Shown here: positions 4,949-47,085 of the stretch, piece by piece
Numbering within the stretch: position 1 is the stretch's first letter
How the letters are laid out: each line of letters begins with the position of its first letter
From: Candidatus Omnitrophota bacterium
GTDB taxonomy: Bacteria > Omnitrophota > Omnitrophia > Omnitrophales > JACROU01
Length of the DNA stretch: 64,000 bases
Direction of reading: 5' to 3'
Assembly (NCBI GenBank): GCA_029261035.1
Contig: JAJDCD010000012.1
Coordinates: 6,958-70,957, forward strand
Notes under the pieces: model-generated
Told to the model about the DNA's origin: nothing
What the model saw: only the letters and a program-made list of their open reading frames with translations
Database searches by the model: none
Position numbers and translations under genes: made by a program

Positions 4949-4970
4949 TTTAAAAAACAAGGCCAATTAA

Positions 4971-8079: not shown

Positions 8080-8092
8080 GTTTAAGTCTTAT

Positions 8093-18695: not shown

Positions 18696-18756
18696 CACTT
18701 GGACAACTCTAAAGAGTTGACCACAGACTCAACAGTACTACGACTATATTTTAGTT

Positions 18757-18826
18757 AAGAAAAGAAAAGCTTTGATTATGGGCCTAATTTAAATAGACAT
18801 AGGATTAAATGGACCATAATCAAAGC
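18757..18826 (-). terminator. putative terminator of the ykgJ-yqeY-yfcE-like unit
   Basis: A perfect 13-bp inverted repeat, GCTTTGATTATGG (18769-18781) with CCATAATCAAAGC (18814-18826). On the minus strand it is followed by TTTTCTTTTCTT. The 32-nt loop is large. Confidence 0.45.
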
Positions 18827-18958
18827 CATATTACAGGATTTATATAGCTATTTGAGGATAGAGGAAAAATAAGTATATAGTCCTATAATGTATCTTATGT
18901 TAACTTTACCATATAGTAAATGCATAAATAACGTAAAAACAGCCTTTAATACAAATCC

Positions 18959-19315
18959 CTAAACTTCATACTGCTTTTGAAGCTTTTTTAACCCTTCGCA
19001 ATAATCCAAGGAATCCTTAGTCCGCCAGGCAAACGGAAATTCTTTACACTGTTTTGGTTTAACTTCTTGAATCATGCATTGATTATCTTTCAAGAATATA
19101 CAACTATCATCTTCATTAGTTTTTAATGTTAATCGCGGTTTCATGATCAAATCGCAATAATGATCTAAGAAGAACTTATGATCTAAATTCAGATGTTTTG
19201 ATATGGTTTCAGACTCATCCAAACCTATGTAAACATAGCCTGGATTTCGACAACAATTACCACATTTCTGACACTCAAATTTATCAATATGCTTAAGGTA
19301 ACCGTACTTATCCAT
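18959..19315 (-). CDS. YkgJ-family cysteine-cluster protein
   Basis: CQKCGNCCRNPGYVYI plus downstream Cys residues, a CxxCxxCC pattern. Confidence 0.7.
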   Translation of the reverse strand: MDKYGYLKHIDKFECQKCGNCCRNPGYVYIGLDESETISKHLNLDHKFFLDHYCDLIMKPRLTLKTNEDDSCIFLKDNQCMIQEVKPKQCKEFPFAWRTKDSLDYCEGLKKLQKQYEV

Positions 19316-23057: not shown

Positions 23058-23072
23058 TCTTTATCACCTGTT

Positions 23073-25074: not shown

Positions 25075-25959
25075 CTACTGCCTTCTTTTGCGAGCGTCTC
25101 TTTCTTTGAAAAATTTCATCAATGGATCTACATAAGATTCAGTAATATCTATTTCTATCTTATCCAATCCCGTCTTCTTAAATAGCTCGTCTATTTGGTC
25201 TAGATTTGCTTGAGTTTTCATGCAAAATTGTTTTTGAAATTTTTTACTTTGTGTATTTACAATTACCTCATCCCCTGTCTCCAAATCCTCTAATGCGAGA
25301 TAACCTATCTTAGGAATATCTCTTTCTCTTGGATCAAAAAGATGGACCCCAATAATGTCATGCTCTTTCCCTAAAATTTTTAGAGGCTTTTCGTAGTTTG
25401 AGTCTATGAAATCTGAAATTAAAAAGATAACTGCTTTTCGGGTTAGCACCTTATGCATGTATTCCAACACCATAGAAAGATCGGTTTTGTTATACTTAGG
25501 TTCATATGAGAGAATTTCTCGGACTACACGCAAAGCATGTTTTCGACCCTTCTTAATAGGAATGTATTTCTCAACTTGATCTGTAAAAAATATAAGTCCC
25601 ACTTTGTCGTTATTCTTCACAGCTGAAAAAGCGAGAAGCGCTGTGATCTCTGCTGCTATTTCAGATTTAAGCTTTTCACCCGAACCAAAAAAACAAGAGT
25701 ATGAAGCGTCAACAACAAAAAAAACAGTAAGTTCCCGTTCTTCAACAAACTGTTTTATATAAGCAGTTTCACTTCGCGCTGTTACATTCCAATCAATAGA
25801 ACGGATATCATCGCCAGGGACATATTCTCTAACGTCTGAGAATTCAATCCCCTGCCCCTTAAAAACAGACTCATATTCTCCTCCAAACAAATCATTAACT
25901 AAACGATTTGTTTTTATTTCAATGAGTTTTACTTTGCTTAATAGTTCTTTTGGTAACAA
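25075..25959 (-). CDS. DUF58-family protein (MoxR-associated)
   Basis: Motif DDIRSIDWNVTARS and a VWA-like core FFVVDASYS. It lies downstream of the MoxR ATPase, as in Bat operons. Confidence 0.85.
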   Translation of the reverse strand: MLPKELLSKVKLIEIKTNRLVNDLFGGEYESVFKGQGIEFSDVREYVPGDDIRSIDWNVTARSETAYIKQFVEERELTVFFVVDASYSCFFGSGEKLKSEIAAEITALLAFSAVKNNDKVGLIFFTDQVEKYIPIKKGRKHALRVVREILSYEPKYNKTDLSMVLEYMHKVLTRKAVIFLISDFIDSNYEKPLKILGKEHDIIGVHLFDPRERDIPKIGYLALEDLETGDEVIVNTQSKKFQKQFCMKTQANLDQIDELFKKTGLDKIEIDITESYVDPLMKFFKERDARKRRQ

Positions 25960-26231: not shown

Positions 26232-27233
26232 CTACGGAACTTCTATTTGGTCGAATATTTTCTTAACAATATCTTCGGAAGTCATGTCTTCAGCTTCCGC
26301 CTCATACGTAATTAGGATACGGTGTCTTAGCACGTCCAATCCAATTTGCTTCACGTCTTCAGGTGTAACATAAGCTCTTCCTTTTAGAAAAGCATGAGCC
26401 TTTGAAGCTTTCGTTAACATAATACTTGCCCGAGGAGACCCTCCAACTGAGATTAAATTCTTTAATTCTTCCAATTTATATAATTCTGGATTACGCGTAG
26501 CAAAAACAATATCCAGAATATAATCTTTTATTTTTTCATCGATATAAATATCATTAACCAAACCTCTTAATCGAAGAATGTCTTTAGGATTAATCACTGC
26601 ATTTACATCAATTTCATCGCTTTTAGTAACTTTTTCAAGAATTAATTTTTCTTCTCTTTTATTGGGATAAGTAACGTTAAGTTTAAGCATAAATCGATCT
26701 ACTTGAGCTTCAGGTAGCGGATAGGTCCCCTCTTGCTCAATTGGATTTTGAGTTGCCAAAACTAAAAAAGGTTCTTCAAGCTTATATGTATTTTCACCAA
26801 TAGTAACTTGTCTTTCTTGCATCGCTTCCAGCAAAGCACTTTGCACTTTTGATGGAGCACGGTTAATTTCGTCAGCCAGAATGATATTGGAAAAAATAGG
26901 TCCCTTTTTAGTCGTAAAATTACCGTCTTTTGGGTTATAGACAAGAGTACCAATTAAATCTGCCGGCAAAAGATCTGGCGTAAACTGAATTCTTTGAAAT
27001 TTAGTGTCGATGGCTTGAGCCAAGGTATGAACAGATTTTGTTTTAGCAAGGCCCGGAAGACCTTCAATCAACACATGACCATTTGCCAAGATGCTGATAA
27101 GAAGTCTTTCTATCAGATACTCCTGCCCCACAATCACTTTATGAATCTCAGTGATGAGAGCTTCCACCAATTTGTGTTCATTTTTTACTTTTTCTGTAAT
27201 TTCTTTTATTACTGCTTCCATGACTACCTCCAT
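26232..27233 (-). CDS. MoxR-family AAA+ ATPase
   Basis: Walker A GLPGLAKT, Walker B and sensor region ILADEINRAPSKVQSALLEAMQERQVT, and ATQNPIEQEGTYPLPEAQVDRF. Confidence 0.92.
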   Translation of the reverse strand: MEVVMEAVIKEITEKVKNEHKLVEALITEIHKVIVGQEYLIERLLISILANGHVLIEGLPGLAKTKSVHTLAQAIDTKFQRIQFTPDLLPADLIGTLVYNPKDGNFTTKKGPIFSNIILADEINRAPSKVQSALLEAMQERQVTIGENTYKLEEPFLVLATQNPIEQEGTYPLPEAQVDRFMLKLNVTYPNKREEKLILEKVTKSDEIDVNAVINPKDILRLRGLVNDIYIDEKIKDYILDIVFATRNPELYKLEELKNLISVGGSPRASIMLTKASKAHAFLKGRAYVTPEDVKQIGLDVLRHRILITYEAEAEDMTSEDIVKKIFDQIEVP

Positions 27234-27264: not shown

Positions 27265-28164
27265 TTAGTTTCTTGGTTCAAACTCACCTTTGGGTTCGTT
27301 AACCAGTTTTGATTCAAAAAATCGTTCTGACAATCTTTTAACTTCAGTGCTTTGTGCATATGTTAATTTAGTTTGAGAGTACTTACAGGATTCTAATTTT
27401 AATATTATTTCTAATAAAATATTTTTATCTTCGTCTGTCAAAGATTCACAGGACTGTATGTTGTTTTCATCCAAAACAATTAACTGATAGGTGTCACTCA
27501 GATATTTACTTATTTTTTTGGACAACAATTCCATAAACTCTGAAAATTGTCCATCTTCAAGCAAGCTACCCAATCTATTAATTTCATTTAAAACCTCTTG
27601 CTCTATACTAGGTTTTGAATCTTCAATTATCTTCTTCTTTTTTTTCTGTTCTTTAATAAAAAAAACGAGCATCAAAAGAAAAACCACAATTCCAGCAGAG
27701 GTTATCCATTTCCAAGGAATAACTAAGGGTGGTTTTCTAATAGATACATTTTGACCTGGGACTTCAATTTGACTCATAGAGCTCTTCCCCGTCTCTATGT
27801 ATTGAATAGGAAAGGAAGGAATAGTCACTTTGCCAGCTCTTGCTGCAATAAGTGTGAAATTAAAAATTCTTCTTTGAATTAACCAACCATTTTCAGTTTG
27901 AGCAGATTCAGACGATACCCCTGTGTTTTCAATTGTAAAACCTTCTATTTCTAATACGGGTGGAATAAATTTGACCTGATCTTCATTTCCTAACCATTCG
28001 ATGGAAACCTCTAAAATAGCCTTAGAACCAATAGTTGGCTCTTCGTCTTGAAACGTTATACTCTTATTAATGGTTAAGGATATAGGAGAATCTTCTTGAG
28101 CATATAAAGCATTGGCGGGTAATACAAAAAGGACAAGAACTGTAAAAATATAAATCCATTTCAT
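27265..28164 (-). CDS. BatD-like membrane protein (first gene of the Bat-type operon)
   Basis: Signal peptide MKWIYIFTVLVLFVLPANALYA, a beta-rich ectodomain, a TM helix AGIVVFLLMLVFFI followed by KEQKKKKK, and a helical tail. The architecture matches 24053-25036. Confidence 0.5.
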   Translation of the reverse strand: MKWIYIFTVLVLFVLPANALYAQEDSPISLTINKSITFQDEEPTIGSKAILEVSIEWLGNEDQVKFIPPVLEIEGFTIENTGVSSESAQTENGWLIQRRIFNFTLIAARAGKVTIPSFPIQYIETGKSSMSQIEVPGQNVSIRKPPLVIPWKWITSAGIVVFLLMLVFFIKEQKKKKKIIEDSKPSIEQEVLNEINRLGSLLEDGQFSEFMELLSKKISKYLSDTYQLIVLDENNIQSCESLTDEDKNILLEIILKLESCKYSQTKLTYAQSTEVKRLSERFFESKLVNEPKGEFEPRN

Positions 28165-28482: not shown

Positions 28483-31400
28483 TTAGGCAGCTGCTTGAAT
28501 GGCTTTCCAAGCATTGATGTCAGCAAGTAATGTATCCCAAAGAGCGGCTCCACCTGCTAATTCAATACCGGTATATATCTTGGTATCAAATTGCTTACGA
28601 CTGAAGTCCAGAAGTTTCTTAGCAAGCAAGGTAGCTGTTAAGTTGTGTTGTGTTGTATCGCCAGAAGAGACTTTAGCTAATAACAGTCCTCTTTGAGCCG
28701 TTACATCTCCAACAACCTCTTCAACACCCACAAGACCTGTCGGAACTTTCTGCAATTTAATTGTTTCATTTAGACTACGATCGAGATTCTCTGGAGCAGA
28801 AACAATCACTAAGTTATCTGGATAGAGACCATATTCAGCAATAGCCAGATCTCGAACCTCCGTTTTTAAGGCTGCTATTCGTTCAGCATTACCAGAAAAC
28901 CACAAGGTCAACTTTAATGCTTTATCCATACCTGCAAGCAAGACAAGTTCTTGTAAATCAGTAGCCACTGTCTTGTCTGTCACTTCTCTATGCACAAACA
29001 AGGCTCGTGATGTACTTGTATTTGCATCTGGAAGTACATTAAAGATTCGCCCCAATTCCTGAGTTGCCGTTGGTGTTAAGCGAATAACATCCGCACTCAA
29101 GATCGTATTATCTGCGATTTGAGCCAACTCAGCTGGAAGAGCAATATCGAAAGAAGTTAATACTTGTTCTTGAAGTTCTCTTCCGTACTCTTCTAAGACC
29201 AATGGTAGAGTTAAATCTCTTGGTCCTGTAAAAATTGTTTTAAACTCAGGAGTAACAAAGCTTGCAACCTGAGCTCCTAAACTTTTTGCTGCTGTTTGAG
29301 CTTCAACAATTACTCTTGTTTTATCGAGTACCTTAGAAGCATTCTCGATTATAGCTTCAGTTGCTATTGGTGTAACCACTTCAAGAGGTGAACTATTTTG
29401 TCTTATAGATTCCCCCACAAGAAAACCAACACGTTCACCTATGGATTCAACAATACTTGGCATATCTAATCCAAGTATCGTCGTAAATACACCAGAAACA
29501 CCACCCCCATTAATAACGTAGTCTACAGCCCACAGAATACCTGTGTCGAATAATTGCGCAGATAATTGACGTGCTTTATTAGCAACAAATTGTTCATTTG
29601 CAGCACCTGCAACAATTTTAATTCCAGCTTCACTCAATCTTGCAATAGTATCCTGATCCAAAATATATTTAATTGCTGTTGGACTAAATACAGATGCCGG
29701 AACATCATAAATCTGATCTGATTTTGCAAGCAAAGCAACACTTCCATTCTCAAGACTACCAAAATTAAATGTTGAAACATCTGGAATTGTAGGAACGTTG
29801 GAATAAGTTTCTTTGACAATAGCATGTTGACTATCAAGTTCACTCATAACGACAATAGCTCCCTCTTCTATCAAAGCTTTAACTAAAGGAGTTCCAACAC
29901 CACCCTGTCCGCCTTGAACAGCTATTATTTTACCTTCAAGAGTTACATCTTCACCAAATACTTTTTGAATAGAAGCCTTAATCCCATTAAAAACACCTCT
30001 TGCTGTCCAAGGAGATGCATTATCACCCCCAAGAGCAAGATCTTTGTGCCCTACAACGTGACTTGGGGAAGTTTCCCCTATCGTCAACAATAAGGGTAAT
30101 GGTGTATTCATGTCTTGTCCCACAAATGTCACTGGTATATTCTCTAAAACTCTACCAAGACTGAGATATGCATCTCTTAATTTTCCTCTTTCAACCTGAG
30201 AAAGGTTCTCAATTTTTTTATTTGGATCAAGACCATCTACCTGAATCATTGTCTTTGACCCGCCTAAAGGTAATAAATCGAGACCAATCATGGCATTCTT
30301 ACTTGTCATAGCTCGAGATAAAGTCAAAGCTGAAATCATTTGAGCTTCTCTAGAATCCCATTTTAATCGGCGAACACCTCCAATAGCACCAGACATCAAC
30401 CATTGTTCTGTTCCATATTTCTTATAAGGAAGTAAATGATGTAAACCAATAATAGCTGTATAACCAACACTCTCATTTCTAGCAATAACAAGTCCCACAT
30501 GACCTTCCCAAACATCACTTACATGAGAAGGTAAACTAGAAGGATCTGTTATTCTGGTTACCTTTGTTCCATCATTTAATGTCAGACCTTCTTCAGGAAT
30601 CAAATTCTCAACCCATTGACGTCCTAGTATTTGCATTTCCTTGAATGCTCCATCCCCCAAAGAATTTGCTATAGCAGATTCTAATTTAGATTGTTCATCA
30701 ATAATAAACGAAGGAACATTTTTAAGCTTTCCTAGAAAATCTCTTCTACCAGAAACTTCTTGTTCCCAATAACCAGAATCAACTGTAGTTGTAATGCTTA
30801 AAAGATCTGATGGATCAATATCCACCCCATCAAAATGAACACTCCCCTTTTTAGGGACAAGACCAACAGAAGTTTCAGTATAGTTATCAGCTCCACTAGC
30901 TCTCTCTAACGCCCAAAGAATAACTCGAAAGTTTTCCATAAACCCAGGCCAAATATAACTACCATCTTCGTTTTGTCTAAACCAATTAACATGAAAGAAA
31001 GCTGGAGCTTGCTCTCCAAGAGAACCAATCACTCTTAATTTATTTTCCATATCTGCTGCTTCTGTTTGAGAAAAGAAAGGACGATTTGCAAAAGGATCTC
31101 TTTTCATAACACCTTCTTCTCCAGCTGCTGCTGCTGTACCCATAACACCCATAACAGCACCATCATAGATACCTGATTCTATCGTAGGAAGCTGACGTAC
31201 TAAAAGTTCTCCTTCAGGAATACGACCACCCCAGAAGATTGCGCTAATACGAACACCCTTAGGATCTCTCCAGTGTTCTGACATGATTTCATCTTGAACA
31301 CGTTCTGCAGATGCTGCATAGCGTGCATTTGGATGAGCCCATTCTCTTGGCTCTAGCTTTTTGGACACTTTATTCTTTTGAAGTCGTTCTCCAGAAGACC

Positions 31401-34400
31401 AGTCAGCAATCTTTTCTCCGGTCCAATCTTCCCAACCTTCTAGATCTGGAGTTCCAACTTTAAGGGTTTCAGACCCTTCTATATATGTTTCTTCTCCAAA
31501 TGCCCATGCTTTGTAATGAGCTTTACTTTTAAATCCTGGAGGGAATTTGGTTTTATCTGTCCACCATACTTCATTTGTAATTGTGTTAATTGCAACATTG
31601 GTAAATATTGTCCCCGTGTTTGGACCAATGGCTACCATTGCTTTTGGTGTTTGCTCCGCATTCGTACCTTTTGCAACACCAAAATAACCATTCTCAGCAT
31701 TGGTTGCATAAAGCCCTTCACCTTCACGAGCACGTGCGAAAATAATGTCATCACTGACAACACGAACTTCGTACTTACCTTTAAGAGCATCTGGAACTTC
31801 GATCATAGCAAAATTCGTTTTCCCAGAAGCACTTGGCGCTGCATATGCTACATAATCAAGTTTTCCTGTTTCAAGATTCTTGATTTCAACCACAGCCATA
31901 TGCTCTGCTAACCAACCTTCTTTAATTGCACTCCAAGTTGCATAACGAAGTGCATGAAACTTTTTGTTTAATAGAGCATTCCCACCATAATTAGAGCCGT
32001 AAGACATAATCAACATTTCATCAGGAAAAATACCGTAATTCCTTAAATCGACACCATCTTCAGCTTCTTCAATAAACTCTTTTCTAGCATCGCCTTCAAG
32101 ACCCAACTCATTCGCTTCTTGTGTTGCTTTCTCATTCGCTTCTGCAATAAGAGAGTATATTTTATCTATATCACCAGGTTCATGAACACCACGAACAAAT
32201 TTTTCTTCATCACCTAGTTCTGCCAGAGCTACATTACCTACCTTAGCAAGTCTGAACATATTTAAAGCCACATATCGACTTGATGTTACCTGAACACCCA
32301 CCTGAGAAAGGTCAGAGCCAGCAGTTCCCATTAGATATGGAAGAACATACATTGTTTTGCCAGCCATAGAACCTTTTAACAGACCTTCCATAACTTCTTT
32401 CTTTTCTGCTGTTGGACTCCAGTTGTTATAGTGCCCTGCATCCTCTGGGTTTTCTGTTGCGACAAACGTCTTTTTAACAGAACGCGCCGTATCTTTTTTA
32501 TGAGAACGTGTGTAATAGTTACCATCTGCGAGTTTTGTTAATTCTCCTGCGGCAACAGCTTGCTCAAGTAAAGCAGCGTCATCTGATTCGTCTACAATCT
32601 GAATATCCGCAGCCCCTGTAAACTCAACCATTTCACGAATCCAGCTTTGCAACGCAACATTAGATAAAGTTGAAATCTTATCTTCAATTGCTGCACCTAA
32701 ACTAGAAGCTTCTGTTGTTGTTTGAGTCCAATCGTATACGCTCAAAGGAAAAGTATCATAAACAAAGTCATGAGCCTCCAAAGCTTTCTGAGCTAAAGTC
32801 AATCGACTTATATTTTGAATTGTTGCTTTTTCTGATACTTTCGCTTTGGCATTACTAAGTTTTTTAGTAACATTTTCACGAGAATCAAAAATTGCATCCA
32901 ACAAAGCATCTCTCTCAGAAGCATTCGATTCAATTACAGCTAGCAGCACACGCGAACCATAAGTAATCCATTCATCGTGAGTCAATTTTCTTTTTAATAT
33001 TTCCATAATGACAGGAGATTTGCTTTTATCAAAAGCCCCACCTGGATTATCATTAAAGTATTCAGTTACCGTCAAATCTCTTTCTTGTAACATTTCAAGA
33101 ATAAGTTCTTTAGTAACTTTTTCGCCATTTTTAACTTCTCTACCATCATGAAGAATTTGTCCACCTTCATCCAACTCGATACCATGAATTTCTAACAACT
33201 TAACCCAATGCCAGAAAATTTCATAAGTAGCAAAGTCGTTCATTAAACGTTTACCTGTAAATACGTGTTTACCCGCATCATTGGTAAGACGTTCTTTTTC
33301 CGTTTTATAATCATCAACAGCGGCTGCATTATTTCCATTCAACTGTTGGAACCCATACTCTGAAGCCATAAAAATTGCATAACGAATTCCATCTAGTGTT
33401 ACTTTACCAGTTGGAGTTGTGAATATTTTCGCATAAGCTTCTTCAGAGAATAACTCATCTAAATCTTTTTGAGTAACGATATAAGGAGTAATTCCTCCTG
33501 CATCAGAAACAAGTCCTAAGTTAATGAATTTTTGTCTTTCTTCTACAGATAAACCATCTACTAAAGCTTGCAAGTCTTCTCTAGTTGCTTGTAACGGTTT
33601 AGCGCCTGCCTCTACATATTTCGTGGATACAGTAGCAACCCAACTTTGACGATAGGCATCAAACTCAACTCCATCTATAACAAGAAGACCTGTTAATCGT
33701 TCACGGAGTTTATCTAAAAACATTGCTTGAACAGCACCGTCATTAGTAGCTTTCTTAGCCGCAGCAATCTCTTCCGTGTCTGTTGCTTTAATTGGAGTTT
33801 CCATTACAGCAGACATTCCACCGATCGGCATACCATTCTCCAGAGCACCCGTTTCACGATTTCCTGTTACTAGTACTGTAATTAAAGCATTCCTACGCGT
33901 GTATTCCGTCATAGAGGCTTCTGTCATACCAACGCTATTAGGATCAGGAAATACTTTTGAAGGGTCATCTTTAACCATCTCAAAACGCCCATTAATATAA
34001 TCCCAACGACCTACATTAGGTCCAATTAAGTTTTCTCTTAAAATCCAAAGAATTACTTCTTGCTGAGCAGCATAAGTCCCTCTTTCATTCAACATTTCTA
34101 TTTTTATAGAACCCCTTTCAAGACCTAGAGTTTCTTCAAATCGCTTAAGAATCTTAGAAATAATCAAAGCTTCTTCAGGAGATTCAATTTTAGGGACATA
34201 AAAGTAAACATTACTCTCATTTTCTTTTTGAGCATCATAGTTATTCAATAAATGGATTGTAAATGCTGCAATCGTCGCAGGAATATTTCTACCATCTAAA
34301 GTAATTTGTCTGTTTTTTAGATGAAGCCCAGGAACACGATGAAAAATGGTTGGCCATTGATCACGATCCACTTTGATACTATATTCTTTAGGTTCACCTT

Positions 34401-37400
34401 CTTTATTTTTCTTTGTAGGATGTTTGAACGCACGTCCTATCCAGGTACCCGATATCACTTCCTTAATATAAGTCCATGCTTGATAGAGTTTTTGTTGATA
34501 GTCATTACCCGCGTCCTCCCAGTCAAACATCCAAGACACAGCGCCTTTTAACCCTGCGTTAATAGCTCCCATCAACATACCCATATCATCGGCTGGCCCC
34601 GTTCCTTGCAGACCGGCTTTTAGAACTTCTGCTGGGACTGGCACTGTTGAGTTCATAACCCAACGATACTGAGAGTCTTTATTTATTAAACCTTCACGAA
34701 TTTGTTCAACCGTTAAAGTGTTTCCATCCGCGTCGGTCAATTCTTTTGAAGGGTCCGCAAAACCATAACCTTCACCCGAATCTCGTCGAGCTTTTCTAGC
34801 GTGTAGTTGCTTTCCAATTTCTAAACCAAATTCACGCGTCAACGATTCAATCGTTCCTTCTACATTTACCGTTCTGCCATTTACTTCTTTATCACCGAAA
34901 AGACCTGAAAAATCTTCAGCCAAATCTTCGCGAACTACAAGCCCTTCTGTTGTGGTATTTACATCAACATCAGATTTAGCAGAAAGATTAAATTGATTAG
35001 ATGTATCAACATCATTACCTTTTTCTCTTGAAGAGGCTGTTCCATTTGCTATTCTGTTAATAGATGCTAATTGAGCACCTCTCACTTCAGCACCTGCAGA
35101 ATTTTGATGTCTATTGGTGAAAGGAGATCCTATTTTCTGACCCACCTGCTGAACCATAGACACAAATGCATAAGCACCCACTTTAACTAATTCTCTCATT
35201 ACTCGATAAACGTTTAAATGAGCAACATGATCTTGAAAAATGGTTACGAATTGGAATGCAAAACCTTGCTTACCCATATCCGTACTAAAAGTTCTTAAAG
35301 CATCAACCATCGCCTGAACATCTTCAGGGTTGTCACCCCATGTATCCGGTTGACCCCAATCAAAATCTTTTGATTGCATTGCTTTTTTAATATTAGCTCT
35401 TTGCTCTAAGCTCAAAGCAGCATGCCAGTTATCAGGGTTATTCCAGTTAAAAGATGGAGATAAATTCACTGCCTTAAGTGGTTTAAAACCTAACTCTGGA
35501 TCATTGTCTACAATATCAGCAAACGCTTTTGCATTTTTTAAATCGGGTTCTTTTTGTTCCATCCACAAAATATCTGCTGCACGAGCTGCCATTCTCAAAC
35601 GGATCCCTGCATTTGTAACACCCAACGAGTTATCAATTTGAAAAAAACCTTCACTTGTTTGAGCTAACGTGTGATCCCAATAAATTTCAATATTAAAACT
35701 ATTTATTGCTAACTCTCTTAAATCCTGAAAATCCAAAGTAATCTCTAAAGGATTAGTAGCTTCGTTCCATGCCTCGACTTCACCGCTACGGCCAGCTTCC
35801 ACCAAAGCTCTTTCAACAGCTTGAGGATAAGTCATAACATCTGCTTCTTGAGCCCAAACATTAGTCAACCTAGAAGATGCCGCAACCTCCTCTTCCCAGC
35901 CGGAGACTTCCGCATCTAAGACTTCTTGAATTGTCCACTCTTTACCAGAAGCATCAACAACAACGTTATTTAAACGCACTCTAAAGTTCGGATCTTCTAG
36001 CTCAATAGCAAGTCTATTCGACCAAAGTTCATCCACATAAACAGGGTTTCCACCATACTTTGGAGTCAAACTTTCATTATGCTCTAAAAGCCTCTCTTTT
36101 TCTTCTCCTCTAATATTCCAAACCTCTCTAATAGAAGCCGCAATTTTGGGAAAATTAGCTTCGATTTCCGAAAGCCTAACTTCAGGGTCAACACCTCTGT
36201 TATATTCTTTTTTATGAGATAAACGAATCACATCTTTTAAAGAAGGTATTCCTTCAACTGTAGCACCTTTAATAAAGTAATGATCTTCAGCTGAATTATC
36301 ATCTTCAAGTAACTTTGCTCCTTCAGCATCACTGCGTGCAATAATTACCAAAGTTGAGCTTCGACGAATGGCTTCATAACGAATATCCCATAGACGCTTC
36401 ATAAACTCACCTAAAGAAGTCAACACTTTACCAGCCATATGACCACATTTTTTTTGTCCATGTGCTTGGTCTTCAATATGAATCGATGCTGATTTTGCAG
36501 CAATAAACAAAGAAGCTAATTGAGTCGGAGATTTATGAGCAGTATCTCCATCAGCGTAAATAGGAATTAATGCATTTAATAAAACATCATTCAAATTTTC
36601 AAGAACTCCAGCCACTGCTTTCTCTCTATTTGCCTTTAAGTTGTCACTAGAAAAGCCTACATAATTTTCTCGATTACTAATTAATTCAGAAATAAAGCCA
36701 TCCCCTAATTCTGTAGCAAAGTTTTCAAAATCTTCTCTAACTTCTATTGTAAATATATACTGTCTTGCTCTAACAGAATCGACAAACGAGCGAATCAATG
36801 CTGGCTTCATTTGCTCTAAAGATGCTTTGTTAGGAGCCCTTCTTAATATTTGGAATAAATTGGGAAAGAACTTTTTAGTTAGATCTCTAGACAAAGTTCT
36901 GAATTGATATTGTAAGTTTTTGTCCAAGTTAACTAAACCCGTGTAAATTTCTTTAACTTCATTTGGAACACTATCCAATTGGTACTGAGCTAAATCTGGC
37001 TCCCCCATATGATGCGATGTTTGCCAACCACTTAAATACAAAGCTTCTGCCCCTGCCTCAACAGCTGCTTTAGCTGTTACAGAATCCATCACACCACCGG
37101 TCGCTGCAAAAGTACCTTGCTCCGCATGCTTCATAACAAGATAATACAAAGAATCTGCTAATGCATTAGCTGTTTCTGGCACATCTAAAACGCTCCCTGC
37201 CAATCTGTGAAACTCTTCAGCAGTCCATTTCTTATCCTCTCTCATAAATTTAGCAATTCGACTAAATCGATCTTGAGCTAAGAATTTTTTAAAATGTGCT
37301 ACTGTGGGTTCAATTCTTTTAGCCTCTGGCAAAGCACCCAAACTATTGGCAGATACATTAACCACTTCATTAAAAACTGGAAATTCCGCCAACAGATCCT

Positions 37401-39195
37401 GCCCCTCAACAGAAAGTTGAATTCCAACTCTGTTATTCCAGGAAGAAAATTGTTTTCCCCAAGGACTTTCGTTAAGCGTAGTCTGAAGCCCTAAAATATC
37501 CCCAGCTTCTATAACTCCGCTACCAACCAAAGCTCTTCTAGCAGAAATGATGAATTCAGGAGCAACACCACCAAAGTAATCAACACCTAAAGCAACCAAT
37601 GCTTCTACAGAAGTTCCTCCAAAGAAAGGTGTTTCAATTGTTGAGTCCTTTAAACCATGGCTACTTGTCTTAAGGAATGAATGAACGTAAGTTTCTTGCC
37701 CTTCAACAGAATCAATTTGAGGAGCAATTAAAGAATAGTTCGATTTGTCTTCATAATAATTCTTAAAAGATTCAGAGTGAAACCCCCCTGTAATAATGGC
37801 TACATTCTTAGCTCTTCTAGATTCAATTAAAGAAGTAGCTTTATCAAACATACCTGAATCACGCTGAATAGCACCTTCGTAAAATTGCACCGATTTCCCG
37901 AATAGAGCTTTCACTTCTTCTAAATTCTCAATTTGTGTTTTCTTGACACGAGACAATGTATTGATTTCATGAATAATTCGACTAGGGTCTAAAGTGTTTC
38001 CTTTAGACTTCAATGCCTTATAGTCTTTTGGTGTTAACTGTAGCTCAAATAACCGGCTCAATAGTTCAAAGTTTAAAATCAGTTCCAACACCCTCTTCTG
38101 TTCTTTAGACTCTGTTAATTTATCTAAGATCTGAGCATTTAACTTCTCAGATTCATTAAACAACCTATCTCCAACCAACTCATTTTTCAAAAGAAAGTTT
38201 CCAACAAAAAATGAAACATTAGGATATACATCAAAATTAAAATTTGCTGGCAATTTCCTAACCACAGATTCCATCAACAGCGCAAGAGCACCCTCAGCAT
38301 CAGAATCAACAGAGTTAAAAAATGCTTTCAACTGTTTGTGCTCTTTAGCAGAAACAGTTTTGCGTGCAAGTTTTAAAAAAGCATTTTTTTCTTTGTGAAA
38401 CTGTTCTAAATTAAATTGATCTTGAAACTTTTGGAGTTTAAAAACTCTAAAAAGCATTGGCCAATCCAATTGCTGACCCGGTTGATCAAAATCAATATTT
38501 AAGATTTGATTCGCTTGTTTTTTTAAATTTTCTAATCTCTGAATAAATGTGATTTTCTTCTGGTCAAAGTCTTTTTTGTTTTTTAAACTAAGTCGAATAT
38601 CTGCATTCAACAAAGAAGACTTGAGGCCTTCTACCTTAGCTTTTATATTGGATAAAAACAAACTCGTCTTCTCTCTTTGAGATAATACAGCTACAAAGTC
38701 TTTTGAGTTACTCATATAAGATGCTTCATCTTCTATACCATAAGCTTTAACTTTAGGATTATTCATTAAGAATAATTCTGCTCCCTTAAGATAAGCTTTG
38801 CGAGTTAAATCATCTGCAATTTGTGCGTTGATTTTTTTATCACGAACAAACTGAAGCAGTTCAGGTTCTAACTCCGAAACGGAGCCTTCTAAAAGAAGTA
38901 AGTCTATTTTTTTGTTTTGATTTAAATAATTAAGAATGGATTCTATATTTTTTTGGGCTTGATAATTACCATGAGCTGTTTGAATATGAAATACATTTGT
39001 TTCATGTATTTTGGGTGTTTGATGCTGAATAACACCAAGCTCACGAGGTAATGTAAAATTTGAATTGTTAAGTGATACGGATGAAACTGTATTTAATTGC
39101 GTTAAACCTTGCGAATATCCAGTCCCTGAGAAAATAAAAGTTAATGCAACGAACAAGTTTATTGCCTTTAATCTAGCGAAGTAATTAAGAAACAT
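28483..39195 (-). CDS. giant multi-enzyme fusion protein: leader + TraB/GumN-like domain + isocitrate lyase + malate synthase + GTP-PEP carboxykinase + ELFV-type dehydrogenase + unknown C-terminal domain
   Basis: Uninterrupted 3,570-codon ORF in an AT-rich genome. AAGGAG lies 9 nt upstream of the ATG (39193-39195). Hallmark motifs of four enzyme families occur in series (see the domain entries). Confidence 0.9.
   Translation of the reverse strand: [3570 protein letters not shown]
28486..29274 (-). other. domain (aa ~3308-3570): C-terminal region of unknown function
   Basis: About 260 aa of non-low-complexity sequence after the dehydrogenase module. I recognised no motif. Confidence 0.5.
29311..30618 (-). 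other. domain (aa ~2860-3295): Glu/Leu/Phe/Val-dehydrogenase-like NAD(P) oxidoreductase
   Basis: [21 protein letters not shown] (Lys2981), [16 protein letters not shown], Rossmann motif [12 protein letters not shown] (aa 3090-3101), VAGAANEQ and [10 protein letters not shown]. The classical ELFV signature is only partly matched. Confidence 0.7.
30691..32667 (-). other. domain (aa ~2177-2835): GTP-dependent phosphoenolpyruvate carboxykinase
   Basis: [47 protein letters not shown], P-loop APSASGKTN (Lys2459), [20 protein letters not shown], and [25 protein letters not shown] (aa 2734-2758). Confidence 0.9.
32971..34878 (-). other. domain (aa ~1440-2075): malate synthase (A-type-like)
   Basis: FDWEDAG (aa 1557-1563), [32 protein letters not shown] (aa 1725-1733), and [13 protein letters not shown], where Asp1987 sits at the position of the catalytic base. 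Confidence 0.85.
35011..37278 (-). other. domain (aa ~640-1395): isocitrate lyase, long form with insertions
   Basis: YLSGWQ (aa 720-725), IYADGDTAH, the ICL signature KKCGHMAGK (aa 915-923, nt 36427-36453), [38 protein letters not shown] and [10 protein letters not shown] (aa 1362-1371). Confidence 0.9.
37711..39018 (-). other. domain (aa ~60-495): TraB/GumN/ChaN (Tiki-superfamily)-like, tentative
   Basis: [37 protein letters not shown] (TAH aa 73-75, Glu103) resembles the GTxH...E motif of this superfamily. [33 protein letters not shown]...YSLIAP (GGFH aa 470-473) resembles its C-terminal R-[ND]-x2-[MW]...VGxxH motif. This rests on pattern recall only. Confidence 0.35.
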
Positions 39196-39746: not shown

Positions 39747-41690
39747 CTATTTAGTTTCTTTATCTTTGTCTTTATCTTCGTCAACAACTTCGAAATCAGC
39801 ATCAACAACATCTTCTTTTTTTTCTTCTGGTTGTTCTTTGCTATCACCTGTTGCTTCCTGATTTTTAGCAGCTTCTTCTTGCTGTTTTTTAGCGGCTTCT
39901 TCATACATTCTCTGAGCCAACCCTTGAGAAGCTTGCCCTAACTTTTCAGAAGCTTTATCTAAAGTTTCTTTGTCTTCAGTTTTCAAAGCTTCTTTAGCTT
40001 TCTTAATGGCATCTTCAATACTCTTTTTCTCTTCGTCCGTTGCTTTGTCTCCACTTTCTTTCAAGGTTTTTTCAACAGAATAAACAAGAGTATCCAAGTT
40101 GTTACGTGATTGAATCAGTTCATGCTTTTTCTTATCTTCTTCTGCATGAGCTTCCGCTTCTTTCACTAGCTTTTCAACATCATCTTTAGACATTCCAGCA
40201 GAAGACTCAATACGAATTTTTTGTTCTTTTCCAGTAGCTAAATCTTTAGCGTGAACATGAACAATACCATTCGCATCAATATCAAACGTAACTTCGATCT
40301 GAGGAACACCTCTAGGAGCTGCTGGAACACCTACAAGATCAAACCGGCCTAGCGTTCTGTTATCCGTAGAGATTTCTCTTTCTCCTTGAAGAACATGAAT
40401 GCTTACAGCTGTTTGATTATCTGCAGCTGTAGAAAAAATTTCTGATTTTCTGATAGGAATAGTGCTATTTCTATCAATTAAGCGAGTCATAACACCCCCT
40501 AAGGTTTCAATACCCAAAGACAAAGGTGTAACATCCAACAAAAGAACGTCTTTAACGTCCCCTTGAAGAACTCCTGCTTGAATTGCAGCACCGATAGCAA
40601 CCACTTCATCCGGATTCACCCCTTGGTGAGGATCTTTTCCAAACAATTTTTTTACTCTTTCTTGAACAGCAGGCATACGACTTTGTCCGCCTACCAAAAT
40701 TACTTCATCAATCTCAGAGGCACTAAACCCTGAGTCTTTTAATGCTTTTTCACAAGGCGAAATAGAACGATCTACTAAATCACTTACTAATTGCTCTAAC
40801 TTTGAACGTGTAAGCGTCATTACTAAATGCTTTGGCCCAGATGCATCGGCTGTAATGAATGGAAGATTAATTTCTGTTTCCATAGAGGTTGAAAGTTCAC
40901 ACTTTGCTTTTTCAGAAGCTTCTTTTAAACGTTGAAGAGCTGTTTTGTCTTTAGACAAATCCACACCTTCTTGTTTTTTGAATTCTTCCATAATATGTTC
41001 TGTTACTGCATGGTCAAAGTCATCTCCACCTAGATGAGTATCTCCATTAGTTGCTTTTACTTCAAAAACCCCATCTCCAATTTCTAAAATAGAGATATCA
41101 AAAGTACCTCCGCCTAAATCGTAAACAGCAATTTTCTCATCCTTCTTCTTATCTAAACCATAAGCAAGAGAAGCCGCTGTTGGCTCATTAATAATACGAA
41201 GTACTTCTAAGCCAGCAATTTGCCCAGCATCTTTAGTTGCCTGTCTTTGACTGTCATTAAAATAAGCAGGAACAGTAATAACAGCTTGAGTAACAGGCTC
41301 ACCTAAATAAGCTTCTGCATCTTGTTTTATTTTTTGAAGTATGATGGCTGAAATTTCTTGAGGCGTTTGATCTTTACCATTAGCTTCAATAAGCACATCC
41401 GAATTTTTTCCTTCTTTTACTTTAAAAGGAACAAGCTCAGCTTCCCTACCAATTTCATTGAAATTTCTTCCAATAAATCTTTTGGCGCTAAAAATAGTAT
41501 TTTCAGAATTGGTTACCCCTTGTCTTTTTGCGGGCAAACCAACAAGTCTTTCCCCAGCTTTTGTAAAAGCAACAATAGAGGGCGTTGTTCTATTACCTTC
41601 TTTATTTGCAATAACCTTTGGTTCTCCACCTTCCATGATTGCAAAACATGAATTCGTTGTTCCTAAATCGATTCCGATAACTTTTCCCAT
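39747..41690 (-). CDS. dnaK: molecular chaperone DnaK (Hsp70)
   Basis: [28 protein letters not shown], and an acidic C-terminal tail. 647 aa. AAGGAG RBS. Confidence 0.98.
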
Positions 41691-41741
41691 GACATTTCTC
41701 CTTCTTTTGATTAATAGCTAAATTTAGCTTACCCTATTACT

Positions 41742-41757
41742 ATCAAGTAGCATGCCA
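41742..41757 (-). promoter_or_regulatory. sigma-54-like -24/-12 element upstream of dnaK
   Basis: The minus strand reads TGGCAT-GCTAC-TTGAT, with the same TGGCAT-N5-TTG geometry as the pilin promoter at 1673-1688. The -12 GC is GA. It lies ~50 nt upstream of the dnaK ATG. Confidence 0.3.
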
Positions 41758-41858
41758 AAGACCTATTCTCTGATAGTTTCTTTAACTTATTGATATATAA
41801 TCATTTAGGATTTTTTAGTATTTTGATTATTGAGTCAGAAGTGTAACCCTGTAACGGG

Positions 41859-41879
41859 ATGGCACAAATAGTGTGCCAT
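41859..41879. promoter_or_regulatory. perfect palindrome between the sigma-54 activator gene and dnaK (candidate activator-binding site, terminator stem or alternative -24/-12 element)
   Basis: ATGGCACA-AATAG-TGTGCCAT (8-bp arms). On the minus strand it also reads TGGCAC-ACTAT-TTGTG. It lies ~110 nt upstream of the element at 41742-41757 and 21 nt downstream of the regulator stop. Confidence 0.4.
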
Positions 41880-41899
41880 TTTTAATAAAAATAGCTCTA

Positions 41900-43270
41900 C
41901 TACAGTTCGTATTCGTCAATTTTTCTATATAACGTTCTACGAGATATTCCTAATATCTTTGCGGCTTTAGATTTATTACCATCTGCCTCAACGAGTTTCT
42001 GACGAATCATTTCTTTTTCCATATCATGAATATTACCTTGGGTCCTGTTATCCCCAGAAAAAGCTAAACTATTATCAGAAGAAATGTTCTCTCCCCTTAT
42101 ATCATTTGGAAGATCAAATAGCTCTAAAACAGACTCATTAGCAAGAACGATCAATCTTTCTATTACATTTTTTAGTTCTCTAATATTACCAGGCCAATTA
42201 TAATGTTTCATTGCCTCTAAAGCATTATCTGCAATGCCTGTAATTGTCTTGTGATTGATCGCCGCAAAATGCTTAATGTAATGCTCGACCAACGGCTTTA
42301 TATCTTCTAGTCTTTCTCTTAAAGGAGGGGCTTCCAACAAAATAACATTAACCCTGTAAAATAAATCTTCTCGAAAAGTTCCTTTCCTTACCTCATCTAG
42401 AAGGTTTCTATTAGTAGCAGCAATAAGTCGGACATTAACCTTTATTGTTTTCGTACCTCCAACTCGTTCAAACTCTCCTTCTTGAAGCACCCGAAGAAGC
42501 TTTACCTGCATTGACTCTGGAATTTCCCCAATTTCATCCAAAAACAATGTTCCATTATGAGCTCTCTCAAATCTACCGATCTTTCTCTCTGTAGCTCCAG
42601 TAAAAGAACCTTTTTCATGTCCGAACAACTCACTTGCTAATAAGGTCTCTGTTAAAGATGCACAGTGGACTGCGATAAAAGAATTATCTTTTCTAGGACT
42701 CATATTATGGATTAAATGAGCAATCAGCTCTTTTCCTGTTCCGGTTTCACCTTGTATTAATACGGAGGAATCGGATTGAGCCACTTTTGTTGCCATATCA
42801 ATAGCTTCTTTCATCTTTTGAGATTCACTGATTACCTCAAAAGCTTCGTATTTATCTTTAATAATATCTTTTTTTAATTCCTTATTCTCCAATTCTAATT
42901 TTTGACTTGATAATGCTTTCTTAACCATAAACTCTAACTCATCTAAATTAACAGGTTTAGTCAGGTAGTGAAACGCCCCTGCCTTAATAGCTTTTACCGC
43001 ATTTTCTACAGAACCATAAGCAGTCAGTAATATTACCGGAATTTGAGCATCAAGGGCTTTAATTTGGTGAAGTAAGGACATCCCATCAACATCTGGCATT
43101 CTTATATCCGAGAGAACTACATTTGGAGCTTCGCTTTTTACTATGGCTAGAGCTTCTTCAGCTGAAGAAGCTAAAGAAATATCGTAGCCCAAAGAACCTA
43201 AGAATTTACCCAAACCTTCTCTCGTGTTCTTTTCATCATCAACAATTAAAATGGTTTCCCAATGCGACAT
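41900..43270 (-). CDS. sigma-54-dependent response regulator (NtrC family)
   Basis: Receiver domain (LSDIRMPDVDG). Walker A GETGTGKE. GAFTGA-type ELFGHEKGSFTGA. REDLFYRVNV. C-terminal HTH AAKILGISRRTLYRKI. Confidence 0.92.
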   Translation of the reverse strand: MSHWETILIVDDEKNTREGLGKFLGSLGYDISLASSAEEALAIVKSEAPNVVLSDIRMPDVDGMSLLHQIKALDAQIPVILLTAYGSVENAVKAIKAGAFHYLTKPVNLDELEFMVKKALSSQKLELENKELKKDIIKDKYEAFEVISESQKMKEAIDMATKVAQSDSSVLIQGETGTGKELIAHLIHNMSPRKDNSFIAVHCASLTETLLASELFGHEKGSFTGATERKIGRFERAHNGTLFLDEIGEIPESMQVKLLRVLQEGEFERVGGTKTIKVNVRLIAATNRNLLDEVRKGTFREDLFYRVNVILLEAPPLRERLEDIKPLVEHYIKHFAAINHKTITGIADNALEAMKHYNWPGNIRELKNVIERLIVLANESVLELFDLPNDIRGENISSDNSLAFSGDNRTQGNIHDMEKEMIRQKLVEADGNKSKAAKILGISRRTLYRKIDEYEL

Positions 43271-43299: not shown

Positions 43300-44466
43300 T
43301 TACTTATCATTGAAAGACAATTGCTTCTTCTCATTTCTCATAGGTAATAACAAAATGAATTCCGTTCCTTTATCATTCAAATTCTTAACCTCTATCTTTC
43401 CACCATGAAGAAGAACAACACTGTATACAATAGTCAAGCCTAACCCAGAACCTTCTTCCTTTGTTGTAAAGTATTCTTCAAAAATATGCTCAACCTTATC
43501 CTCCGATATTCCGACTCCAGAATCTGCGAAAGAAATAGAACAAACCTGATCCTTAAAACTTGTTTCAACAGATAAAGACCCTCCTTTAGGCATTGCTTCC
43601 ATCGCATTTTTTATAAGATTAACAGAAAGCTGATAAATTTTATTTCGATCAAATAAAAAGTCAGGAAGTTTTTTATCTAGTTTCAAACTAATCTTAATCT
43701 TCATTTCATTCAATTCGGGCTCAAAGAAACGAACAGCCTCTTCTATGGGTTCATTTATAGCTCCTAACTCAAAGTCCGCAGGCGTTTGCCGTGTTGTCTT
43801 TAGAAAATTTTTAATTATTTGATCCATTCTAGAAGTCTCCTCCAACAAAACCTGTATGGACTGGTTAAATTCATTTTGATCTTTCTCAGGAAGGGTTTCT
43901 GATTTTTGAGAAAGAAGCTTTAAATGAATTAAAATAGAATTAAGAGGATTTCCAAGTTCATGAGCAATTCCTTGCGATAGCTTAACTAGGGATGAGATTC
44001 TTTCTAACTGTCCTAACTCCTTATCTTTTATTCGAATGGATGTAATATCCATAAGAACAAATAGAAAATAATCCACATTGCCTTCATTATTATAAAAAGG
44101 TTTTATGCTTAATATCAGAAAACGAGGCTTTGGATAAAACACTTCCTTTTCTTCACTCAATATCCCATCTTGTTTATCCATTTTATCTTCAGCCCAATGA
44201 AGCAAATCTGCATCAAAAATCATTTCTGAGAGGACTGTACTCTTATTAGGGTCAAATGAGACCCCTAAAGTACTTTGCGCAATTTTATTTGCCCATAAAA
44301 TCTTTTGATTGGGTTCTACAGCCATAAGACCTATAGGCAAATCCACCAATAATTCCTTTAGATCTTGTCTCTCTTCTTCAATCTGTAGGATATATTTCTG
44401 AACCGCTTCTTTGTCTATCTTTTCTAAACGTTCTAATAATTTATTTGTAAATAATGATTTAGACAT
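43300..44466 (-). CDS. cytoplasmic PAS-domain sensor histidine kinase
   Basis: No TM helix. PAS-like N-half. H-box GIAHELGNPLNSI. N-box LIKNAMEAM. G-boxes DSGVGI and GSGLGLTIV. The ATG overlaps the trpC stop by 8 nt. Confidence 0.88.
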   Translation of the reverse strand: MSKSLFTNKLLERLEKIDKEAVQKYILQIEEERQDLKELLVDLPIGLMAVEPNQKILWANKIAQSTLGVSFDPNKSTVLSEMIFDADLLHWAEDKMDKQDGILSEEKEVFYPKPRFLILSIKPFYNNEGNVDYFLFVLMDITSIRIKDKELGQLERISSLVKLSQGIAHELGNPLNSILIHLKLLSQKSETLPEKDQNEFNQSIQVLLEETSRMDQIIKNFLKTTRQTPADFELGAINEPIEEAVRFFEPELNEMKIKISLKLDKKLPDFLFDRNKIYQLSVNLIKNAMEAMPKGGSLSVETSFKDQVCSISFADSGVGISEDKVEHIFEEYFTTKEEGSGLGLTIVYSVVLLHGGKIEVKNLNDKGTEFILLLPMRNEKKQLSFNDK

Positions 44467-46323: not shown

Positions 46324-47085
46324 ATGAAAATAAAATATTTAAAATTACTTCTAATTTATTCTTTCTTACTCTGTTTACCCTTAAGTTCCTGCAGTAAACT
46401 TTTTCCGCCAAAAGAGATTACAGTTCAAATAATACCTCAGGAAAAAGGCTTCATTGCTCATTTAAACATTTCAAGAAAAGGTCAGGTTCTAATTATACAA
46501 ACTGAGGAAATCAACCCCTCTCATCCAGAACTTAAAAAAATATTAGAGACTCCAAACACTTCTTTTACGCTTATTCTTCCATTAATAAATGAAACTTTAA
46601 TCAAAACAATTTCTCAACCCTTATGGATTGAGAAAATGAATGAATTTCACTATATCGATCTTAACTCAGTACCTGAATATCTTAAAAAGTATTTGTTAGA
46701 GCTTAAATCAAAAAAAATATTTTCCAAACCAACACGTCAAAACAGATACGTCCCTCTTAAAGACGCCGTTCTTATCTCTGTCTCACCTCACGAAAGCCTC
46801 GAATATAAAGAATCAACTAAAATTTGCTTTAAATTAATTCGAGGAAAAACTTCCTTTGTATTCACCCCAGAACTTACCCTGAAACTGATTGCGGATATGA
46901 AGAAAACATTTGGCAAACGTGGCATGAGAACAGACTTACTTGTCTCCAGCTCCATAACAGACGTTCCAGATATACTTTTGAATGAGTTCTTTGGAACACC
47001 TCATGTTATCAACATATCTCAAAGCGATTATACAGAAACTCCTATTTTTGAATCACAGGGTAAAGTAATAAAACAAATAAACTAG
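46324..47085 (+). CDS. hypothetical lipoprotein, opposite strand to the surrounding trp genes
   Basis: Lipobox LPLSSC after a hydrophobic leader. It is the only long ORF in this interval on either strand. There are 15 nt to the trpD start and 3 nt to the trpG stop. Confidence 0.55.
   Translation: MKIKYLKLLLIYSFLLCLPLSSCSKLFPPKEITVQIIPQEKGFIAHLNISRKGQVLIIQTEEINPSHPELKKILETPNTSFTLILPLINETLIKTISQPLWIEKMNEFHYIDLNSVPEYLKKYLLELKSKKIFSKPTRQNRYVPLKDAVLISVSPHESLEYKESTKICFKLIRGKTSFVFTPELTLKLIADMKKTFGKRGMRTDLLVSSSITDVPDILLNEFFGTPHVINISQSDYTETPIFESQGKVIKQIN

Follow-up and report, generated by a model that had tools for sequence, protein, structure and literature searches.

A predicted sigma-54 promoter and a linked NtrC-type kinase–regulator pair ahead of dnaK in Candidatus Omnitrophota

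Bacterial dnaK is usually controlled by HrcA acting at CIRCE, an inverted repeat that controls chaperone expression, or by sigma-32. At sigma-54 promoters such as glnAp2 of the NtrB/NtrC system, nifH and Pu, activation proceeds from inverted-repeat enhancers ~100-140 bp upstream, with an optional bend by integration host factor (IHF). We analysed 64,000 nt of DNA from a Candidatus Omnitrophota bacterium (GCA_029261035.1, contig JAJDCD010000012.1, positions 6,958 to 70,957; hereafter the window, in whose numbering all coordinates for this genome are given), where dnaK follows the genes for a histidine kinase and an NtrC-family response regulator and is preceded by a predicted sigma-54 promoter through which this pair probably activates it.

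Control of heat-shock genes by sigma-54 has been described elsewhere. The original prediction for this locus had pointed to myxobacteria as the precedent for such control through a two-component activator, and in Myxococcus xanthus the HsfB/HsfA phosphorelay does activate the heat-shock gene lonD (Ueki and Inouye 2002, cited in PMC9109919). The precedent is, however, wider than that. In Flavobacterium psychrophilum, sigma-54-type SM4 promoters with transcription starts mapped by 5'-end RNA-seq lie at groES-groEL, lon, dnaK, grpE-dnaJ, htpG and clpB (PMC9723704, Table 2A), and the excerpted text of that study gives three candidates for the activator without assigning one. A 2025 survey predicted an enrichment of sigma-54 promoters at the GroEL, GroES, IbpA, GrpE, DnaJ and DnaK COGs in Planctomycetota and Bacteroidota (PMC12316311); it was based on a position-specific scoring matrix tuned to TGGCAC-N5-7-TTGCT and by its own account misses sites that deviate from the consensus. 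The survey lists 33 classes; since a literature search on Omnitrophota and sigma-54 did not return it, Omnitrophota is probably not named there. No paper linking Omnitrophota, sigma-54 and dnaK was found in our literature search. Chlamydia, a member of the Planctomycetes-Verrucomicrobia-Chlamydiae (PVC) group, uses HrcA (PMC8762339).

The spacer between the regulator TAG stop (41902-41900) and the dnaK ATG (41690) is 209 nt long on the minus strand, on which all features of the dnaK locus lie, and carries the sigma-54-type element TGGCATGCTACTTGAT (TGGCAT-GCTAC-TTGAT; 41757-41742). Its end is 51 nt from the dnaK ATG, confirming a reading that had placed it ~50 nt ahead of the gene. The -24 element is TGGCAC-like (TGGCAT, 41757-41752) with the GG at 41756-41755, and the GG-N10-G spacing is intact, with TTG exactly 5 nt past the -24 hexamer. 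The -13/-12 pair, G41744/A41743, is GA where GC is canonical, so that the -12 C is replaced by A. Standard sigma-54 geometry would place the transcription start at 41730-41734, ~11-13 nt past the -12 position, and give a 5' untranslated region of ~41-45 nt, within which the Shine-Dalgarno sequence AAGGAG was found at 41703-41698; AAGGAG or GGAGG precedes the ATG in every relative. Taken by itself, the window provides a weak statistical case for the element. TGGCAY-N5-TTG occurred three times against 0.8 expected, a count that 4 of 100 shuffles also reached, and matches with up to two mismatches to TGGCAC-N5-TTGCW were at chance level (19 compared to 20.2 expected). The three exact matches, at 1673 (pilin gene), 41757 (dnaK) and 41878 (within the inverted repeat described below), are all intergenic, follow a sigma-54 activator gene and are oriented toward the next gene.

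The closest matches to the regulator were from Candidatus Omnitrophota genomes (identity up to 67% for the genome collection, up to 71% for metagenomes); the nearest DnaK relative was 88% identical. The order trpC-(trpF)-kinase-regulator-dnaK was seen at 23 loci, which provided 20 distinct spacers, 110-526 nt in length, plus one of 1039 nt. TGG[C/T]AY-N5-TTG was present in every one of the 20 distinct spacers, 44-79 nt ahead of the dnaK ATG. When the spacers were anchored on the motif, the T, the GG, the A and the TTG were invariant, C was present in 19 of 20, and the spacing was identical throughout, including the 5 nt between the -24 hexamer and TTG; flanking columns reached at most 13 of 20 and the rest of the spacers could not be aligned. 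This is consensus -24/-12 spacing, and a TGGCA that is invariant apart from that one C, 6 nt before an invariant TTG, is a sigma-54 signature. Both strands of 274 kb of Omnitrophota sequence, 549 kb of strand in all, were searched for TGG[CT]A[CT]-N5-TTG[ACT][ACT]. Of the 22 matches, 20 were ahead of dnaK, one ahead of the window's pilin gene and one elsewhere. As controls we used 128 loci from Verrucomicrobiota, Kiritimatiellia, Lentisphaerae, Sumerlaeia and others that carry a regulator homologue (~46-52% identity) with no dnaK next to it, the Omnitrophota-clade loci and the divergent locus L130 being set aside. Only three of these showed the motif after the regulator gene, in the canonical form TGGTAT-N5-TTGCA, and all three were beside groES-groEL (L032 and L043/L120). 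This conservation, the specificity search and the control loci together show that the motif is genuine, that it is specific and that it goes with a chaperone gene. The original prediction had proposed comparing upstream regions in relatives, and this comparison, with all 20 spacers sharing the motif, the gene order kept and no rival signal present, supports its interpretation that dnaK may be sigma-54-dependent.

The original prediction had also raised the GA-for-GC deviation as a caveat. The deviation is real, but it is no defect of one site, since the -12 base was A in 12 spacers, T in six and C in only two. A second predicted sigma-54 site in the window, TGGCATTCTATTTGTA (1673-1688, plus strand), shares it. 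This site precedes by 45 nt the gene for a type IV pilin (1734-2171), which is followed by PilM, PilO and secretin genes (region 181-8079, plus strand), and comes after a PilR-like activator gene (181-1563) whose product has a GSFTGA loop and is 44.6% identical to the dnaK-linked regulator. Its TGGCAT-N5-TTG geometry is the same as that of the dnaK element, as had been noted, and it also has no -12 C (TTGT). With C missing in most relatives and T at the pilin site, the deviation is a conserved trait and not a flaw of a single site, and because the pilin site shares it TTGW may be the lineage's general -12 preference.

Upstream of the dnaK promoter, the perfect inverted repeat ATGGCACA-CTATT-TGTGCCAT (41879-41859; core TGGCACA-N5-TGTGCCA at 41878-41860) is a candidate enhancer. 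It begins 20 nt past the regulator stop and its centre is ~112 bp upstream of the -24 GG, in agreement with the predicted location ~110 nt upstream and just after the regulator gene. In the upstream parts of the spacers no non-AT words were more enriched than GGCACA and GACACA with their complements; each such hexamer was found in 8-10 of 20 spacers compared to ~1 expected per hexamer. The half-site G[G/A]CACA was present in 19 of the 20 spacers (the exception is L130), usually 3-60 nt past the regulator stop, and was commonly paired in inverted repeats of the form TGRCACA ... TGTRYCA with centres mostly 88-128 bp upstream of the -24 GG, within the ~80-150 bp at which upstream activator sites are found. 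Several relatives combine a single good half-site with a degenerate one (TGTATC) or carry direct repeats. Repeats and promoter occurred together only where a chaperone gene comes after the regulator homologue. The conserved repeat is probably the binding site of the activator, as originally suggested, a reading that the half-site family and its canonical enhancer distance support. The further suggestion that the palindrome might itself be a second -24/-12 site (TGGCAC-ACTAT-TTGTG) did not survive the comparison and was rejected, as many relatives, often with TGACACA, have neither the GG nor a TTG at the proper spacing.

Between this putative enhancer and the promoter lies an IHF-like bend site, TATCAATAAGTTA (41795-41783, minus strand), a perfect match to WATCAANNNNTTR. 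IHF-like sites with 0-1 mismatch and the same orientation were found 35-41 nt before TGGCA in 7 of 20 spacers, where our own estimate of the expected count is ~0.3-0.6 for a position window picked after seeing the data. TAAGTT/AACTTA was likewise enriched, in 9 of 20 spacers compared to 2.8 expected.

The dnaK gene (39747-41690) codes for a protein of 647 aa with a Pfam HSP70 match of 1.4e-267 and a score of 1025 bits against the NCBIfam DnaK equivalog NF001413 (cut-off 648). An intrinsic terminator with a 16-bp stem and a T run (39731-39694) directly after the stop codon makes dnaK monocistronic in this genome. The regulator (456 aa; 41900-43270) has the receiver (REC), sigma-54-interacting AAA+ and Fis-type HTH domains of the NtrC family (Response_reg 1.8e-31, Sigma54_activat 2.3e-72, HTH_8 8.1e-16), including REC Asp55 (VLSDI), a Walker A motif GETGTGK, a Walker B motif and a GSFTGA loop at residue 221. 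This is the GAFTGA-type loop of sigma-54 activators; the relatives' regulators have GAFTGA in 16 cases and GSFTGA in six. The regulator scored under every NCBIfam equivalog cut-off (AtoC 513 compared to 714, NtrC 445 compared to 559) and can thus be assigned no named orthologue. The kinase (388 aa; 43300-44466) is NtrB/AtoS-like, with a PAS-like N-terminus, HisKA and HATPase_c domains and an H-box HELGNP with His169. It has no transmembrane segment (maximum 19-residue hydropathy 1.39) and matches the NtrB and AtoS profiles over its whole length, again under all NCBIfam equivalog cut-offs, which indicates a soluble PAS-type sensor. The regulator is the probable activator of the dnaK promoter and the adjacent kinase its probable partner. 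A look-up of the regulator's exact sequence returned no record among public assemblies.

Both two-component genes lie at the tail of the trp operon throughout the clade. In the window trpE, trpG, trpD and trpC are upstream, and the end of trpC and the start of the kinase gene share 8 nt (44459-44466). The conserved gene order is trpC-(trpF)-kinase-regulator-dnaK, in which trpF (~210 aa) stands between trpC and the kinase gene in most relatives and is not there in the window or in L081, the relative closest to it. Neighbour-joining of 144 homologues placed all 19 dnaK-linked regulators within one clade of 22, the remaining three members being two truncated contigs (L001, L089) and L007. Regulator and dnaK are thus linked at 19 of the 20 clade loci with readable downstream sequence. 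In L007 (Ca. Taenariivivens baikalensis, 7371-8600) an HTH-type gene and another open reading frame (ORF), judged by translation, come after the regulator gene and may be an insertion. In L072 (6996-7381) there is an apparent frameshift inside the regulator gene.

Other control signals were looked for at the locus. CIRCE (TTAGCACTC-N9-GAGTGCTAA) had no matches at up to three mismatches in the 64-kb window and, with as many as 5 of 18 positions mismatched, none close to dnaK among 22 Omnitrophota sequences, which confirms, for the window and for the relatives' dnaK leaders, the earlier failure to find a CIRCE-like repeat in the spacer. A sigma-70 scan gave no site of 9/12 or better between 41691 and 41825. 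When the TTG was treated as a sigma-70 -35 element, the best TATAAT-like partner 16-18 nt past TTGWWN averaged 2.8 of 6 matches compared to a null of 2.85, with none at 5 or more. When it was treated as part of a sigma-32 promoter of the form CTTGAAA-N13-15-CCCCATNT, the best partner at 12-16 nt averaged 2.45 of 7 compared to 2.85, with none at 6 or more. Both promoter types were rejected, as neither a -10 element nor a CCCCATNT-like partner rose above the null. In L082, furthermore, the gap between TTG and ATG is just 33 nt, which is too short for the TTG to be a -35 element. No Rfam family was found in the spacer, and sub-threshold chance matches lay outside it only. The only small ORF in the spacer, with a TTG start and 30 aa, overlaps the end of the regulator gene. 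A perfect 14-nt palindrome, AGCTAAATTTAGCT (41716-41729, minus strand), is located where the dnaK leader is predicted to begin; it was rejected as an operator in the 5' untranslated region since it is not conserved in relatives, and is probably a chance occurrence in AT-rich DNA. The genes rpoN, rpoH, hrcA, grpE and dnaJ, as well as the RpoN and RpoH boxes, were absent from the 64-kb window, to which the check for rpoH and hrcA in the genome, proposed with the original prediction, was confined. Two sigma-54 activator genes in the window imply that the genome has an rpoN.

Taken together, we consider it likely, judging from sequence comparison, that dnaK is a single-gene unit driven by a sigma-54 promoter, with the adjacent kinase and regulator, the enhancer and the IHF-type site as the remaining parts of the model. 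The soluble PAS/HisKA kinase would phosphorylate the neighbouring NtrC-type regulator, which would assemble on TGGCACA-N5-TGTGCCA ~112 bp upstream of the -24 GG, with a bend at the IHF-type site aiding the loop. The AAA+ domain of the regulator, via its GSFTGA loop, would then open the closed complex of the sigma-54 holoenzyme at 41757-41742, and transcription would begin near 41731-41734 and end at the terminator at 39731-39694. Basal DnaK would probably come from read-through of the trp-kinase-regulator operon, as there is no terminator between the regulator gene and dnaK. The non-canonical A or T at -12 may also loosen the closed complex. In reviews the -12 element figures as the fork-junction site and as a major determinant of both recognition and the stable closed complex (PMC5095919), so that weakening it could affect how firmly the promoter's off state is maintained. 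The inducing signal is presumably heat or cytoplasmic protein-folding stress, a soluble kinase suggesting that the cue is cytoplasmic, for example heat or unfolded protein. We infer rather than observe the sigma-54 dependence, the regulator's binding to the repeat, IHF's role, the basal route and the signal.

Several observations weigh against this model. The -12 C, part of that major recognition determinant (PMC5095919), is missing in the window and in 18 of the 20 relatives' spacers, where A or T may be a lineage-specific preference or make for a -12 element that is weak by design. Among relatives the half-sites differ in spacing (1-8 nt) and in orientation, which is unusual for one conserved dimer site. 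A weak sigma-70-like sequence, GTTACA-18-AATAAT (9/12), is present at 41855-41826. No rpoN lies in the window, and its existence is deduced from the two activator genes. For a chaperone that is normally constitutive, a promoter with strict activator dependence would be a strange choice, so that the model has to posit a basal route. Finally, the regulator could act elsewhere while another activator serves the dnaK promoter.

This last point leads to the alternative that the sigma-54 promoter is real but that another enhancer-binding protein activates dnaK, the repeats binding some other protein or serving the regulator operon. Gene adjacency is circumstantial, the half-sites vary as described, the genome has at least two activators of the same family with ~45% identity, and L130, where another gene intervenes and the G[G/A]CACA repeat is missing, keeps a sigma-54 site at dnaK. 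We nevertheless regard this alternative as rather unlikely, given the linkage of regulator and dnaK at 19 of 20 readable loci of a monophyletic clade, the canonical enhancer distance of the repeats and their joint occurrence with the promoter only where a chaperone gene follows the regulator homologue. The palindrome at 41879-41859 might also be mainly a terminator or RNA-stability hairpin of the kinase–regulator operon, as the original prediction had considered. It starts just 20 nt past the stop codon and has a perfect 8-bp stem with a 5-nt loop, and the 66-nt region folds at -17.2 kcal/mol (z = -2.3). However, the hairpin is followed on the minus strand by CCCGUUAC and not by a U tract, the terminator scan gave no call, and an intrinsic terminator was rejected despite the hairpin. 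The relatives keep the G[G/A]CACA sequence itself, beyond what pairing requires, in several of them a lone half-site with a degenerate TGTATC partner, or direct repeats, would fold poorly, and no T run follows the repeats in any of them. These features favour an enhancer, and we judge a mainly terminator or stability role quite improbable.

It might further be asked whether TGGCAY-N5-TTGW is the operator of another regulator, or belongs to another promoter class with TTGWW as a -35-like element. The missing -12 C in 18 of 20 spacers and the lack of rpoN in the window would fit, and TTGAA, TTGAT and TTGTA resemble the beginnings of sigma-70 or sigma-32 -35 elements. Against this, there was no sigma-70- or sigma-32-type -10 partner above the null, the 33-nt gap in L082 is too short, TGGCA stands exactly 6 nt before TTG as in the sigma-54 signature, and the motif also stands between a PilR-like activator gene and the pilin gene, as is classic for sigma-54. 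We therefore hold such an operator or promoter class to be very improbable. To the idea that the motifs of the window are chance matches in AT-rich intergenic DNA we give practically no weight. The excess in the window alone was indeed marginal (three compared to 0.8, with 4 of 100 shuffles reaching three) and two-mismatch counts were at chance, but all 20 distinct spacers share the motif, its position and its orientation despite unalignable flanks, and 20 of the 22 matches in 549 kb of searched strand were at dnaK.

The sigma-54 promoter with its linked kinase and activator also admits a bolder reading, which we hold only as a tentative possibility. Omnitrophota may be without sigma-32 and HrcA circuits and use this dedicated cytoplasmic kinase/activator pair with sigma-54 as the primary protein-folding (heat-shock) sensor. 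DnaK could exert feedback on either member of the pair, as happens with sigma-32 in other bacteria, and the lineage-wide A or T at -12 could be an adaptation by which an essential chaperone gene retains a basal output that is partly activator-independent. If so, this would be a third general architecture of bacterial heat-shock control with an identifiable sensor.

Related loci outside the dnaK-linked clade showed several further arrangements. In L130 (regulator 49% and DnaK 68% identical) a 196-aa secreted-looking ORF lies between the regulator gene and dnaK (5389-6429); the locus keeps a canonical TGGCATAATTCTTGCT 76 nt ahead of dnaK and an IHF-like TAGCAATAAGTTA, and no G[G/A]CACA repeat was seen. 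From this locus, sigma-54 control of dnaK may reach beyond the studied clade. In genomes of Auribacterota type, groES-groEL comes after a regulator homologue with 48-50% identity (L012, 7362-7723; L032, 7347-7613; L043, 7353-8061, identical to L120). L032 has TGACACA ... TGTGTCA and then TGGTATCATCCTTGCA, and in L043 TGGTATTTCAATTGCA is ahead of a 106-aa ORF with groES next. The groES genes in these loci also have a sigma-70-like promoter of their own, with TATAAT-A(A/G)GGGGGTGATTT as a conserved leader. These loci suggest that the regulator family is more widely linked to chaperone genes. At 65 other loci (within L009-L080 and L097-L160; Verrucomicrobiota, Kiritimatiellia, Lentisphaerae), homologues of ~50% identity precede a polytopic membrane protein of 570-645 aa with weak PMT/PMT_2 (glycosyltransferase) matches, and the spacers often overlap or are very short. 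No sigma-54 motif was found at these 65 loci, which lie outside the dnaK-linked clade, and they were rejected as relatives of the same function.

The surroundings of the locus differ in part from those of its relatives. Between trpG and trpD a 253-aa ORF on the plus strand (46324-47085), with no Pfam or NCBIfam match, breaks the trp run. In relatives L005, L008, L082, L085, L094 and L095, genes for a BatD-like protein and a MoxR AAA+ protein follow dnaK after 15-90 nt (a Bat/aerotolerance-type operon). In the window, a giant ORF of 3570 aa and a 550-nt AT-rich gap separate dnaK from this operon (region 28483-39195, minus strand), which comprises genes for BatD-like (27265-28164), MoxR (26232-27233), DUF58 (25075-25959) and VWA/TPR (20331-24053) proteins. 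The giant gene has a sigma-70-like TTGACT-17-TATATT at 39387-39359. Gene strand switches from plus to minus at ~18500-19000, where GC skew also flips, with a cumulative maximum near 18 kb; this fits a terminus-like convergence of replication and transcription, or simply coding-strand bias.

The sensing of folding stress outside the sigma-32 and HrcA paradigms is poorly understood. Here a probable sensor kinase, an activator, a DNA site and a promoter are contained within 3 kb, as a cassette kept across an uncultured phylum, offering a compact system that can be synthesized. The conserved A or T at -12 also means that scans trained on the TGGCAC-N5-TTGC consensus will miss real sites in lineages where the -12 element differs.

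Compared to known systems, the arrangement most resembles parts of several. With NtrB/NtrC it shares a soluble PAS-HisKA kinase and a REC-AAA+-Fis-HTH regulator, which align over their full length with the NCBIfam models at scores below the cut-offs; however, the predicted target is a chaperone gene where theirs are nitrogen or catabolic genes, the half-site reads TGRCACA compared to TGCACC, and the regulator is not NtrC, AtoC or ZraR proper. The regulated gene and the presumed physiological purpose are those of HrcA/CIRCE and sigma-32, whereas the Omnitrophota dnaK leaders have neither signal and positive activation at a distance is proposed in place of a repressor or a dedicated sigma factor. 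Myxococcus likewise has a histidine kinase and an NtrC-like regulator that directly activates a heat-shock gene, but HsfB is a hybrid kinase and the targets given in the excerpted text are lonD, secondary-metabolite and pilY1 genes and not dnaK (PMC9109919); the Omnitrophota regulators form their own clade. In F. psychrophilum, as here, dnaK is on a -24/-12-type promoter, and the excerpted text reports no sigma-32 or CIRCE signals at the genes concerned (PMC9723704). It belongs to another phylum (Bacteroidota) and its motif is described as 'typical -24/-12', whereas the Omnitrophota element, predicted from sequence at dnaK, has A or T for the -12 C and comes with a linked kinase/activator pair and a putative enhancer. 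The survey put forward the same idea, including for Planctomycetota, a PVC-group phylum related to Omnitrophota, with no activator named for the chaperone promoters in its excerpted text (PMC12316311). Sigma-54 promoters at chaperone genes are thus already known, and what the comparison supports as new is the phylum, the predicted linkage to a kinase/activator pair with an enhancer, and the conserved non-canonical -12 base.

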